From Candidatus Poribacteria bacterium (GTDB taxonomy: Bacteria; Poribacteria; WGA-4E; WGA-3G): a DNA stretch of 64,000 bases. The stretch lies in assembly GCA_965198235.1 (NCBI GenBank), contig OZ240248.1, positions 3,552,001 through 3,616,000 of the forward strand, given 5' to 3'. The position numbers and the translations under genes were made by a program. Below the pieces are notes generated by a model that worked only from the letters and a program-made list of their open reading frames with translations, ran no database searches and had not been told where the DNA came from. Shown here piece by piece: positions 8,014 to 32,013 of this stretch (position 1 is its first letter; every line of letters begins with the position of its first letter).

Positions 8014-8086
8014 GGGCCCATAGCTCAGTGGTCAGAGCCGCCGGCTCATAACCGGCTGGTCCTAGGTTCGAGTCCTAGTGGGCCCA
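8014..8086 (+). tRNA. tRNA with CAT anticodon, most likely tRNA-Ile2 (lysidine-modified)
   Basis: Acceptor GGGCCCA/TGGGCCC, anticodon arm CCGG-CTCATAA-CCGG, T-loop GGTTCGAGTCC. Lacks initiator features. Position after rpoD parallels E. coli ileX. CCA is not encoded. Confidence 0.88.
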
Positions 8087-8097
8087 TACCCTTACGT

Positions 8098-8170
8098 GGG
8101 GCGTTAGCTCAGGGGTACGAGCGCTACCTTCACACGGTAGAAGTCACTGGTTCAAATCCAGTACGCCCCA
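8098..8170 (+). tRNA. tRNA-Val(CAC)
   Basis: Acceptor GGGGCGT/ACGCCCC, anticodon arm CTACC-TTCACAC-GGTAG, T-loop GGTTCAAATCC. CCA is not encoded. Confidence 0.92.
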
Positions 8171-28602: not shown

Positions 28603-30231
28603 CTATTCAATGTCTATGGCACTCAGAATTCTCTGAAGCAGTTGGGCTTTTGGTATCACTCCTGCTAAACGATCAACAGCCTTTCCATCTTGGAACACGA
28701 TATAAGTCGGAGTTGCTCTGACCGGATATTTTTGGAGCGTTTGTCGACCATTCTTAATATTCAGTTTCGCGACAGCAAACGTGTTCCGTTTCTCTAAGGC
28801 AATTTCGGCGACAACTGGCGCCATCTGTCGACAGAACGGTCAGCCATCCTTTATAAACTCAAGCAGGATAGGAACTTCTGATCCGAGCACAAGGGTATTA
28901 AACGTCGCATCCGTGACTTCAAATGGGATGCCGGAGGTTTTACTGGCGGTGGTAAAACTAATGTTGATGTCGGTTGAATTGCCAGCAGCGTCCTTGACTT
29001 TCCCCGCAATGACGTAGGTTATCTCGTTGCCAAGTTCTTTGCCTTTTACCAATTCAAGCGTTCCCTTATTGCCTGCAATTTTGCCGAGCCATCCGACATC
29101 AGCACCTGCTGCGGTTTGCAGTGCGATGTTGCCGGTTACCTCTTCGCTGAATTCGACTTGTATGCGCCCACCACTGTTAAGTGCTTCAGGGTCAACGTCC
29201 TTATCACCGTCATTGACGCTTCCGCTGGTAATTTTGGGTGCCTCGGTGTCTGGTACAGCGACGGTATAAGCGAGCGTCTGGTTTCCATCTGCCCAAGTGA
29301 TCGTCAAAGCGAGGGGACCTGGGTCGAAGGGACCCGTGATTCGCATCCGTTTGCCAATGATTCGAGCCGTTCCTGTGCTTACAGTGACATCCTCTGGTGG
29401 ATTGTCAAAAGTAAGGGTGATGGTATCGTCGGCAGCGAGTTCCGAGTTGCCTGCTGGGTTCGCGCTAACGAACGCTGCGGGGGGTCTGATGGTATAGTTG
29501 AGCGTCTGAGTGCCATCCGCCCAAGTGACGGTCAATATGAGTGCGCCTGGGTCGAAGGGACCTGCGATTTTCACAGTTTTGTCAGTGACTGTGGTGGTGC
29601 CTGCGCTCACCGTAACATCCTCTGGTGGGTTATCAAAAGTAAGGGTAATGGTATCGTCCACAGTTAGTTGCGATTGGACTGCTGGATTCGCGCTAATGAA
29701 CGCTGCCGGGGTTCTGATGGTATAATCGAGCGTTTGGGCTCCGCCATTCCAAGTAAGCGTCAGGGCAAGGGGACCTGGGTCAAAGGGACCTGTGATTGTC
29801 ACGATTTTGCCATCGACTGTAGCGACCCCTGCGCTCACTGTAACGTCCTCTGGTGGGTTGTCCAAGGTAACGGTGATAGTATCATCTACGTCAAGCTGCA
29901 AGTCGGTTGCTGGATCCGCTCTAAGAAACACCGGAGTACTAACAAAGACTACAGGCGGAGGGATAGTTTTGCCGAAGTTTGCGGCGACGAGCGTCAGATC
30001 GAGGATATTGACGGTGCCGTCCCCGTTGACATCTGGGTTAGGGGATTGGTCTGCGGTGGGTGTCGCTCCGAAGTTTGCGGCGACGAGCGTCAGATCGAGA
30101 ATGTTTATCGCGCCGTCGGCGTTGACATCAGATGCTCTTAGGGTGTCGAGATCCACATCTTGTGTATAGCCTACGGTTAAATTAGTGAGGATTAAACAGG
30201 TCGTTAGGAATAAAACGGTGATTTTTTTCAT
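28603..30231 (-). CDS. Putative secreted selenoprotein (542 aa): signal peptide, dockerin, 3x76-aa repeats, Ig-like domain, thioredoxin with UPFC
   Basis: ORFs 28840-30231 and 28603-28824 are in one frame, joined by TGA(28842-28840)-CCG-TTC-TGT-CGA-CAG. The thioredoxin fold spans the TGA (VTDATFNTLVLGSEVPILLEF...U-P-F-C...RATPT). Confidence 0.85.
28809..28830 (-). promoter_or_regulatory. Candidate bacterial SECIS hairpin
   Basis: mRNA CGACAGAUG-GCGC-CAGUUGUCG starts about 10 nt after the UGA and has a G-initiated apical loop. Confidence 0.5.
29257..29934 (-). repeat. Three tandem 228-bp (76-aa) intragenic repeats
   Basis: F102, F178 and F254 are in register. Shared DDTITLTFDNPPEDVTVSAG...ITGPFDPGPLALTITW. 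Confidence 0.9.
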
Positions 30232-30252
30232 CTGTTTTTCTCCGTGGATAGT

Positions 30253-30320
30253 TTATGCTTGTGTGCCGTGCCATTCTTGAACTGCTTCGGAAATCGCTGG
30301 CAGATTTTCGATTGTGGTTT
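30253..30320 (-). pseudogene. Degenerate duplicate of the 3' end of the MtaA/CmuA gene (duplication scar)
   Basis: tgccattcttgaactgcttcgg...atcgct...agatt.tcgattgt.gttt matches 30985-31052. Confidence 0.8.
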
Positions 30321-30355
30321 TACCACCGAAGCTACAAGTAGGAAATTATATAACT

Positions 30356-30964
30356 TTATTCAGTTTCATCAATCCCTAAGCTTCCAAGGATTTGTTGCAC
30401 CAGTTCAGCCTTAGGCTTTGCTCCGATGAAGCCCTGGACAATTTCTCCATCTTTGAATACGATATAGGTGGGCGTTCCACGAATGTGATATTCAGCCGTT
30501 TTCTCCAGTTGGGTATTTACATCCAACTTGACGAAACTAAATATCTCGCGATATTCCAATGCAACTTCTGCGACCACCGGTCTCATCAGTATGCAAAATG
30601 CTCAGGTATCGTCTTTAAATTCTACCACAATGGGGAGTTCGGAACCCAAGACAATATCGTCAAACGTCGCATCCGTGACTTCAAACGGGATACCGGATCT
30701 CCTACCAAAATGGCTTGCGACGCGTGTCAAATCGAGGATATTGACGGTGCCGTCACCGTTGACATCCGGGTTAAGGGGCTGATCTGCGGTGGGTGTCGTG
30801 CCAAAGTTTGCGGCGACGAGTGTCAAATCGAGAATGTTTATCACGCCATCGGCATTAACATCGGAGGCACTCAGGGCATCAAAAACCGCGTCTTGTGTGT
30901 AGCCTACAATTGAACTTGTAAGCATTAAGCAGGTCGTTAGCAGTAAAACGGTGATTTTTTTCAT
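30356..30964 (-). CDS. Putative secreted selenoprotein (202 aa): signal peptide, dockerin, thioredoxin with UAFC
   Basis: ATG 30964 gives MKKITVLLLTTC and two DVNxDGxxNILDL repeats. In-frame TGA(30604-30602)-GCA-TTT-TGC-ATA-CTG continues into ORF 30356-30586 (RGTPT cis-Pro loop). Confidence 0.85.
30560..30595 (-). promoter_or_regulatory. Candidate bacterial SECIS hairpin
   Basis: mRNA UGCA-UA-CUG-AUGA-GACC-GGU-GGUC-G-CAG-AAGU-UGCA. Apical loop GGU lies 23 nt 3' of the UGA. Confidence 0.5.
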
Positions 30965-30984
30965 CTGTTTTTTCCGTATGTGGT

Positions 30985-32013
30985 TTATGCATGTGCTTGG
31001 TGCCATTCTTGAACTGCTTCGGGAATCGCTTGGAGATTCTCGATTGTCGTTTGAAGTGGGATTGCACACTCCGGTCCGATCAATGGGACACCTGCCTCAA
31101 GGTTTTTTACGACCTCTGCTTTAACGTCTTCCGGCTCTTTAGAAAACAGCGTTTCGGGGTTGTTGATGTTTCCGACGAGGGCAATGCGCTCCTGAACGAT
31201 GTCCATGGATTCTTGGGGTTCGTTTTTGGAATCGTAGTGGAAGGCGGACATGCCGGTCTGTGCGATGTACTCCATTCTATCAACAGTGCGCCCGCAGATA
31301 TGCAGGATTAAGGGAATAGGGATCCGTTCAACAAATTCGATGTGGAGGTCCCGAAGATAGCGTTGGTAGTATTCGCCACTGACGAGATCGCCTGTGGCGT
31401 GGTCGGGGAGCGTCAGCGCGTCGGCACCTGCCTCAATTTGTGCGACCCCGAATTGTACGGTGGCTTCCTTCATCCGATCGAGTGCGAGTTTCGTTTTACC
31501 GGGATCGTCAAGTGAGAGCAACAGGAAGGGTTCAACCCCGAAGCAGTGGTAACCGAGCGACCAGGGTCCCATCGTTTTCCCGATGACAGCGATTTCATCG
31601 CCGTATTCTTTCTTCAGGATTTTAATCGCTTCGAGGACGCACTGGGTATCGGGATGGGTCAAGAAATCGTCCGGTATAGCGATGTCGTCAACATCTTCCC
31701 AGATCGGTTCTCGCATTCTAACGGTGGGCCAGTTGTCCTTCTGTTCCCACTGAATTTTACAACCGAGTGCACTGGATTCTTGAATGATCGTGAAAACAGG
31801 CATGATGGTGTCGAATCCGAGTTCGGTATATCCTGTGGCGGCGAGTCGCGCCATGAGTTCCGGTTCTCGATTTGCCTGTGGGAAAGGGGCATCAACGAGA
31901 TCCATCAGTTCGACTGTAGCAACAGAAGTAGGGTTGCAGATAGGCGTGCGGTCGGTCGGTTCATTACGGAGCGCGGCGAGCACCCGTTCACGACCTGTCA
32001 TCGGTGTTTGCAT
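30985..32013 (-). CDS. MtaA/CmuA-family methylcobamide methyltransferase (URO-D superfamily)
   Basis: MTGRERVLAAL, GPWSL, QIEAGAD, Zn ligands LHICG and PECAIP. Confidence 0.85.
   Translation of the reverse strand: MQTPMTGRERVLAALRNEPTDRTPICNPTSVATVELMDLVDAPFPQANREPELMARLAATGYTELGFDTIMPVFTIIQESSALGCKIQWEQKDNWPTVRMREPIWEDVDDIAIPDDFLTHPDTQCVLEAIKILKKEYGDEIAVIGKTMGPWSLGYHCFGVEPFLLLSLDDPGKTKLALDRMKEATVQFGVAQIEAGADALTLPDHATGDLVSGEYYQRYLRDLHIEFVERIPIPLILHICGRTVDRMEYIAQTGMSAFHYDSKNEPQESMDIVQERIALVGNINNPETLFSKEPEDVKAEVVKNLEAGVPLIGPECAIPLQTTIENLQAIPEAVQEWHQAHA

Follow-up and report, generated by a model that had tools for sequence, protein, structure and literature searches.

Thioredoxins that carry selenocysteine (Sec, U) and the recoding of UGA itself are textbook knowledge. 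To our knowledge, the known Sec thioredoxins are plain cytoplasmic thioredoxins. Thioredoxin (PF00085, UxxC) is counted among the experimentally verified prokaryotic selenoprotein families in the available excerpts of two reviews (PMC13188914, PMC9312934), which cite Kim et al. 2015 for it, and eleven Trx UXXC sequences from the Sargasso Sea are mentioned in those of a third (PMC1088965). Exported UxxC relatives, namely DsbA-like, DsbG-like, thiol:disulfide interchange and thiol-disulfide isomerase-like proteins, appear as predicted families in the same kind of excerpts (PMC9312934, PMC1088965). In addition, the available text of a paper on [NiFeSe] hydrogenases places Poribacteria among the phyla with Sec variants. 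The present analysis concerns two adjoining genes, A and B, on a 64,000-nucleotide (nt) stretch (the window) of contig OZ240248.1 (positions 3,552,001 to 3,616,000, assembly GCA_965198235.1) of a Candidatus Poribacteria bacterium, each of which is interrupted by one in-frame TGA at the active site of a thioredoxin domain. Candidatus Poribacteria are sponge symbionts.

Taken as a whole, genes A and B are likely to be genuine selenoprotein genes of Candidatus Poribacteria that encode an exported, dockerin-linked Sec-thioredoxin, and for gene B it is highly probable from its sequence and those of its relatives that the product would be a real Sec-thioredoxin. Like the known Sec thioredoxins, the proteins belong to PF00085, have a UxxC motif in which Sec replaces the attacking cysteine, have Cys homologs and are encoded with a hairpin right after the UGA. 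In contrast to them, they carry a putative export signal and a type I dockerin, to which gene A adds immunoglobulin (Ig)-like repeats; U and C are separated by AF, PF or IY instead of GP, and gene B lacks the Trp before the active site. These features (the export signal, the dockerin fusion with the Ig-like repeats of A, and the non-GP dipeptide), together with the restriction to one Poribacteria family, are what is new here. Type I dockerins are duplicated calcium-loop modules (PF00404) found on cellulosome enzymes. The duplicated calcium-loop dockerin and the presence of cohesins in the same genome are shared with those enzymes, whereas the cargo here is redox-active instead of a glycoside hydrolase, the organism is a sponge symbiont, and the cohesin proteins have leucine-rich repeats, spondin-like domains and type IX secretion system (T9SS) tails. 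The exported UxxC selenoproteins share the implied envelope location, the thioredoxin-like fold and the UxxC motif, and are the closest analogy for the mode of action; however, the gene B protein is no DSBA member, its best models are classical thioredoxins, and the available excerpts describe no dockerin for those families. In the open full-text literature, outside which lie survey supplements and subscription journals (the supplements could list the family), no paper was found that joins a dockerin or Poribacteria with a selenothioredoxin.

The features of gene B are as follows.

30356-30964, minus strand: gene B, 202 codons, stop TAA (30358-30356) included; signal peptide, dockerin and predicted selenothioredoxin (translation with the TGA read through, Pfam, orthologs).
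30893-30964, minus strand: signal-peptide-like N-terminus, residues 1-24 (MKK, hydrophobic core, GYTQ before D25), from a reading of the sequence.
30713-30865, minus strand: type I dockerin, residues 34-84, with two DVNxDGxxNILDL calcium-loop repeats (Pfam PF00404, 47.5 bits against a cut-off of 22.9).
30389-30682, minus strand: thioredoxin domain, residues 95-192 (Pfam PF00085, 68 bits against a cut-off of 23.5).
30602-30604, minus strand: in-frame TGA, predicted Sec121, first residue of U-A-F-C, aligned with the first Cys of WCGPC in solved thioredoxins.
30593-30595, minus strand: Cys124 (TGC), partner or resolving cysteine of UxxC, an invariant column in 38 aligned homologs.
30560-30595, minus strand: hairpin resembling a Sec insertion sequence (SECIS), beginning 7 nt past the UGA, with its upper stem at 30569-30585 and the apical loop GGU at 30576-30578 (minimum free energy (MFE) fold, RNAalifold).

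Gene A, which starts 124 nt downstream of gene B, has a similar layout.

28603-30231, minus strand: gene A, 542 codons; signal peptide, dockerin, three repeats of ~76 residues, a Big_5 Ig-like domain and a predicted selenothioredoxin (U-P-F-C) (translation, Pfam).
28840-28842, minus strand: in-frame TGA, predicted Sec464 of gene A, in ...EFIKDG-U-PFCRQ.
28807-28822, minus strand: hairpin downstream of the Sec464 codon, in which a GGCG..CGCC stem encloses CAGUUG; 85.4% of cells are paired, with one compensatory pair.

Read from the ATG at 30964, gene B begins with MKKITVLLLTTC, followed by the two DVNxDGxxNILDL repeats and then by SGIPFEVTDATF...VVEFKDDT, the TGA and AFCILMRPVV...RGTPT, with the frame open until the TAA. 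The TGA at codon 121 is the only one in frame, and the motif T-U-A-F-C stands where thioredoxins have C-x-x-C. An earlier note on this DNA, made from the sequence alone, had described gene B as a signal peptide-dockerin-selenothioredoxin and as the second of two paralogs with the same in-frame TGA. All the elements that it listed, from the ATG through the dockerin repeats, the TGA and AFC to the end of the frame at 30356, lie where it had placed them; Pfam confirms the dockerin and the thioredoxin domain, and the signal peptide is again a reading of the sequence. The first paralog is gene A, and the flanks of the two TGA codons have indeed diverged (IKDG-U-PFCRQ in A, KDDT-U-AFCIL in B).

Several lines of evidence support Sec at this codon. 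The source genome assembly (G000; 5.17 Mb, two contigs), whose related contigs are all titled Candidatus Poribacteria, contains a tRNA-Sec gene (78.1 bits) as well as selA (592.5 bits), selB (348.2 bits) and selD (359.8 bits), each above its curated cut-off. Neither selA nor selB has an internal stop, and selB lies beside the tRNA-Sec gene, ~57 kb from the window. The selD gene (G000 C1:3115227-3116150, L020) has one in-frame TGA; it is probably itself a selenoprotein gene, and its TGA serves as an internal positive control for recoding. The in-frame UGA of genes A and B would thus be decoded as Sec by SelA, SelB, SelD and tRNA-Sec, and this decoding would be guided by the hairpin that begins 7 nt past the UGA and presents a small G-containing loop ~24 nt downstream.

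The codon itself is strongly conserved. Full-length orthologs of gene B were found in 22 of the 24 same-genus genomes, at 59-82% identity; in the other two, the gene is split across contig ends (one genome) or was not found (the other, 84% complete). Codon 121 is TGA in 21 of these 22 orthologs and TGC in one (G011), while the flanks vary (DDT-U-PFC, DDT-U-IYC, DDN-U-RFC, SEF-U-IYC and SEF-C-GFC). In an even draw of 151 genomes from the phylum, with presence defined as a copy at E <= 1e-40, the gene occurs in 96, including 95 of the 99 other genomes of the window's family (genus g1, 56/56; g9, 37/38; g12, 2/2), and in none of the 51 genomes from eight other Poribacteria families. Among 96 near-full-length copies, 86 have exactly one TGA and ten have none; where checked, the position then has a Cys codon. 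Such retention of TGA at one codon (21 of 22 and 86 of 96 copies) goes far beyond chance. At the corresponding site of gene A, all 33 aligned A-type sequences have TGA. When 108 thioredoxin-domain matches from B, A and further paralogs were aligned (89 unique segments, with some genomes probably counted twice), the codon was TGA in 94, TGT in eight and TGC in six.

The exchange of Sec and Cys is also visible among proteins. The best 120 protein-database clusters comprise 31 full-length ones (PF00404 plus PF00085) and 89 dockerin-only ones of 120-143 residues, the latter being explained by gene callers that stop at the TGA. All 24 full-length database homologs that were retrieved have CxxC at the site, and Cys is also found there in loci L093 and L094. 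These Cys-form dockerin-thioredoxins of Poribacteria (for example clusters P0002-P0032) have the same architecture and length as the gene B protein and are 48-72% identical to it; they differ in the CxxC and in the residues that follow, which are mostly Pro-Ile or Pro-Thr, although a few, such as P0002, P0026 and P0113, keep Pro-Val-Val like the Sec forms. One of the Cys-form clusters is named 'thioredoxin 1' (JGI) and others 'hypothetical protein'. At least nine Sec/Cys switches are needed in a maximum-likelihood tree that comprises 79 Sec and 33 Cys thioredoxin domains (112 in all); five of them are forced by well-supported branches in a 114-column alignment that leaves many forks unresolved. 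Loss of the Sec trait was considered as the cause of the Cys forms and rejected, since selB is present in all five Cys-form genomes tested, which indicates that the trait is in use across the family.

Selection on the segment beyond the TGA is also that of a coding sequence. Among 23 orthologs, the median pairwise ratio of nonsynonymous to synonymous substitution rates (dN/dS) downstream of the TGA is 0.142, compared with 0.095 in the thioredoxin part upstream of U and 0.160 in the signal-plus-dockerin part; the pooled ratio of nonsynonymous to synonymous differences (pN/pS) over residues 122-202 is 0.243. The dS against the window copy is commonly 0.5 to more than 1. The ratios were taken among orthologs; the thioredoxin domains of A and B are only 48% identical, and their synonymous sites would be saturated. 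The low dN/dS argues that the downstream half is translated.

The available excerpt of PMC1088965 names as a feature of bacterial selenoproteins a stem-loop that follows the UGA directly and has G in its small apical loop, and gene B has such an element. The hairpin spans 36 nt in the MFE fold of the window sequence and was recovered by RNAalifold on 22 orthologs. Among 42 unique Sec-form sequences, its 13 pairs are formed in 89.2% of cells, as opposed to 29-65% when the partners are slid by 1-3 nt, and double-sided changes occur at three of the pairs, in 19 cells (C-G to U-A, C-G to A-U, and G-C to A-U or C-G). None of 500 shuffles reached its paired fraction, its 19 double-change cells or its covariation score. 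The loop lies within Pro-Val-Val, the first Val of which is GTG in 39 of the 42 Sec forms; genome-wide, GTG accounts for 22.6% of Val codons. In the three Cys-form orthologs with DNA, the loop codon is Ile (ATT) and three or four of the seven upper pairs are formed, compared with a minimum of five in Sec forms. A subgroup with K-P-V-V-T may, judging from its sequence, have the stem shifted by 3 nt and a GGUC loop.

The thioredoxin assignment was addressed by modelling. An AlphaFold2 model built with 38 homologs (mean predicted local distance difference test, 88.1; predicted template modelling score, 0.74) has the thioredoxin order beta-alpha-beta-alpha-beta-alpha-beta-beta-alpha, with U121 between strand 112-117 and helix 122-137. 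The top Foldseek match is Escherichia coli thioredoxin (template modelling score 0.92 on the target, root-mean-square deviation 1.0 A, 32% identity), and a profile search of PDB sequences returns classical thioredoxins at E 4.5e-29. In the alignment to solved thioredoxins, the attacking, first Cys of WCGPC corresponds to U121, the buried Asp to E115 and the cis-Pro to P165; positions 121 (as C), C124 and P165 are invariant in the homolog alignment, and E115 is nearly so. In the proposed mechanism, Sec121 would replace the attacking cysteine and Cys124 would be the partner with which it forms a selenenylsulfide. The protein falls short of DsbA family membership (PF01323, 18.1 bits against 25.6, with no stretch passing alone), and neither the gene A nor the gene B protein has a match to the iodothyronine deiodinase-like family PF00837 at E up to 0.01. 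The T-U-P-F of some orthologs resembles the deiodinase motif, which we take to be a likeness of motif only.

These results can be set against other meanings of the TGA. Were it a true stop, gene B would yield a 120-residue dockerin-only product, and the thioredoxin half would be a decaying remnant. The 89 dockerin-only clusters and the normal use of TGA as a stop in this genome speak for that possibility, but the stop would cut the thioredoxin fold exactly at the active site, all 23 orthologs examined keep an open frame beyond it that evolves under purifying selection, some orthologs have Cys at the position, and the Sec machinery is present. We therefore regard it as very improbable. The same holds for decoding as a standard amino acid (Trp, Gly, Cys or Arg) through a changed code or near-cognate read-through, even though read-through alone would likewise keep the frame open. 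TGA terminates 439 of the 2086 ATG-initiated open reading frames (ORFs) of at least 300 codons (21%) and is thus not reassigned but an ordinary stop here, and selA and selB are free of internal stops. Moreover, the alternative residue in homologs is always Cys, which makes a classic Sec/Cys pair, the conserved hairpin has the spacing from the UGA that a bacterial SECIS should have and is degraded in the three Cys-form orthologs examined, and selB is retained in each of the five Cys-form genomes. As for a sequencing or assembly error, the chance is negligible: nothing was found in its favour, and the same codon recurs in 86 of 96 copies from separately assembled genomes and is unchanged in contigs from public runs. 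The earlier note had pointed to the many genes that stop at TGA as an argument against a genome-wide Trp or Gly code, which the ORF count supports. It had also held that the TGA is what selection on a recoded codon predicts and is hard to explain by a shared nonsense mutation or a sequencing error, and the conserved codon, the Sec/Cys pairs, the Sec machinery and the hairpin all agree with this. Among orthologs, the dN/dS comparison that it had proposed revealed purifying selection downstream of the TGA, and the neutral evolution or frameshifts that would have spoken for decay did not appear: no frameshift and no second stop were found in the 23 orthologs examined.

The remaining question is where such a protein would act. 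The export signal and the dockerin ahead of the thioredoxin domain suggest that the protein is destined for the cell envelope or surface rather than the cytoplasm. The N-terminal pattern is kept among orthologs (...SYA/GYTQ, then D/E), and the AlphaFold model has a helix at residues 2-20, with low confidence; it is fairly probable that this segment would act as a cleavable export signal and that the protein is exported. The product would then be a thiol-disulfide (selenenylsulfide) oxidoreductase outside the cytoplasm. The PF00404 match on gene B covers profile positions 2-54 of 57 with two tandem calcium-binding loop-helix repeats and is the top-scoring dockerin match in the genome. Both calcium-loop repeats are kept in all orthologs, with 19 invariant columns in 69. 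Another dockerin match flagged with one TGA (G000 C1:4642269-4642412) was rejected as a candidate, since this TGA is simply the stop codon of a normal gene.

The genome has 33 dockerin and seven cohesin matches above the Pfam cut-offs, and a cohesin match was found in all 24 same-genus genomes searched. Two cohesin proteins end in a T9SS type A sorting domain (TIGR04183, 29.0 and 29.8 bits against a cut-off of 23). One of them (L178, 857 residues, G000 C1:830770-833340) has an N-terminal cohesin, a spondin-like domain and the C-terminal sorting domain, and has an ortholog in most of the 24 same-genus genomes searched, 21 of these orthologs being 62-84% identical across the cohesin. The other (L179, 1548 residues, G000 C1:4904717-4909360) has a planctomycete-cytochrome-like N-terminus, leucine-rich repeats, two cohesins, a dockerin and the T9SS type A tail. 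The layout of these two proteins is an unusual scaffold architecture for a cohesin-dockerin system. The dockerin of the gene B protein would hold it on cohesin modules of such large T9SS-tailed proteins, and tethering to a cohesin is plausible, if tentative. When the dockerin (19-row alignment) was modelled together with two calcium ions and the L178 cohesin (21-row alignment), one of the seven cohesin modules, the complex scored 0.11 against a mark of 0.32, a value that speaks neither for nor against docking.

A number of results weigh against the overall picture of an exported, dockerin-linked Sec-thioredoxin. As regards the hairpin, the count of three compensatory pairs is matched by 214 of the 500 shuffles and so does not stand above them, and the orthologs are related, so that the shuffle counts overstate the support. 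The gene A hairpin is the less well supported of the two, since sliding its register by 3 nt still leaves 84.3% of cells paired. Taken alone, the 68 nt of the window sequence fold with unremarkable energy (z = -1.15 for B, +1.23 for A), and it is the alignments that carry the case for the hairpin. No SECIS family was found in a gathering-threshold Rfam scan of the window, which returned two tRNAs only, nor in a relaxed scan of 28700-30700 (E up to 10), which gave two chance matches to long non-coding RNAs. Bacterial SECIS elements are poorly represented in curated models, and for this reason the Rfam result is not counted against the hairpin itself. As regards the protein, it misses the equivalog cut-off of NCBIfam TIGR01068 (66.1 bits against 96.8) and lacks the Trp-Cys-Gly-Pro signature; it is therefore filed as a thioredoxin-family domain and not as TrxA, and its redox properties may, as far as the motif suggests, differ from those of thioredoxin. 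Finally, export is read from sequence only, and the gene B protein has no T9SS tail of its own that would bring it to surface cohesins.

This last point is central to an alternative in which the protein is a real selenothioredoxin but is not tethered to a cohesin. It would be soluble in the periplasm, with a dockerin-like module that serves calcium binding or self-association, and would have a DsbA-, TlpA- or ResA-type role. Dockerin-like modules are widespread in non-cellulosomal bacteria, with partners that are unknown. The combination of a signal peptide with no T9SS tail, where the cohesin proteins do have one, favours such a location, as do the exported UxxC selenoproteins of DsbA-like and thiol:disulfide interchange type listed in the available excerpts of reviews (PMC9312934, PMC1088965). 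On the other hand, a dockerin whose two calcium loops are kept in all orthologs under a median dN/dS of 0.16, and the occurrence of cohesins in the same genome and throughout the 24 same-genus genomes, argue for a docking partner. We consider the untethered protein possible but somewhat doubtful.

Whichever location applies, the calling of genes up to the TGA has made a conserved redox enzyme of a major sponge-symbiont lineage invisible in current catalogues; the named ones among the 89 dockerin-only fragment clusters are labelled 'hypothetical protein'. Bacterial selenoproteins for the envelope or surface are few, and none with a dockerin was found described in the open full-text literature. 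The surface-docking architecture and the systematic mis-annotation are thus both worth reporting. With at least nine Sec/Cys switches in one family, the gene offers a natural system for asking when selenium pays off in an extracytoplasmic thiol oxidoreductase, and it is a marker of selenium use in sponge holobionts. It is rather unlikely, though it would be of wide interest, that these are the first selenoenzymes on a cohesin-dockerin scaffold, forming a surface selenothioredoxin of sponge symbionts that works on host-derived substrates in oxic, reductant-poor surroundings. If surface display is true, candidate substrates would be disulfide-rich matrix proteins, peroxides and sponge organohalogens (by a deiodinase-like attack of Sec on the halogen), and the repeated Sec/Cys switching would reflect the selenium supply within different hosts.

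The arrangement of the two genes points to a tandem duplication, for which the following neighbouring features are relevant.

30236-30320: remnant of the 3' end of an MtaA-like gene (last ~85 nt, ~21 codons, frame still readable), between B and A, recognized from direct repeat D3.
30985-32013, minus strand: MtaA/CmuA-family methyltransferase gene, the upstream neighbour of B (TIGR01463, 248.8 bits against a cut-off of 235.4; Pfam URO-D).

Direct repeat D2 (29984-30239 and 30717-30972) is 84% identical and direct repeat D3 (30236-30320 and 30968-31052) 82% identical. Together, they show a tandem duplication that took in the 5' part of the gene and the terminal ~85 nt of the MtaA-like gene upstream of it. 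The remnant before gene A is a footprint of this event, from which A and B arose, and is also seen in a relative (L024). The stop of the MtaA-like gene sits 20 nt ahead of the gene B ATG, and the gene was found in the retrieved DNA of 41 of 57 B-carrying loci, directly upstream of B in many; no functional link was seen between it and a secreted thioredoxin. Its protein is 93-98% identical across species, compared with only 52-85% for the gene B protein. Within gene A, 29260-29943 (minus strand) consists of three head-to-tail repeats of 228 nt, 69-77% identical, which encode the ~76-residue modules and have a weak likeness to CopC and Big_5.

Gene order and paralog content vary among relatives. 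The order is B-A in the window and its closest relatives and A-B in one species subgroup (loci L038, L040-L042, L062, L063 and L082-L088). A third paralog, ~257-261 residues long and with a normal W-C-P-P-C motif, lies close to the pair in some species, on that side of B which faces the MtaA-like gene (for example L025:3197-3508, L026, L030, L032, L069, L072); this genome lacks it. Relatives also have extra thioredoxin ORFs with one TGA, none of which occurs here (for example G002:C1:2206054-2206377, G019:C2:3253736-3254050 and G008:C1:2309694-2310011, also L102 and L105); these either measure 165-200 residues or have a W-U-G-F-C motif and another kind of hairpin. The Sec-thioredoxin family of Poribacteria is thus larger than genes A and B.

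The stretch is also contained in four runs of one sponge metatranscriptome study, whose contigs cover the whole of gene B with the TGA unchanged; such RNA-library contigs show presence only, not transcription, strand or ends, and DNA carry-over is possible. The TGA of gene A (28840-28842) is bridged by none of the listed contigs, a gap that carries no weight. Contigs from two of the runs (X3 and X4) join 29476/29478 to 30717 with 31-33 other letters between, that is, the dockerin end to the repeat region of gene A; they probably represent the gene A of a related strain laid across the 84%-identical duplicated dockerins. Elsewhere in the window, two adjoining tRNA genes lie on the plus strand at 8014-8086 and 8098-8170.

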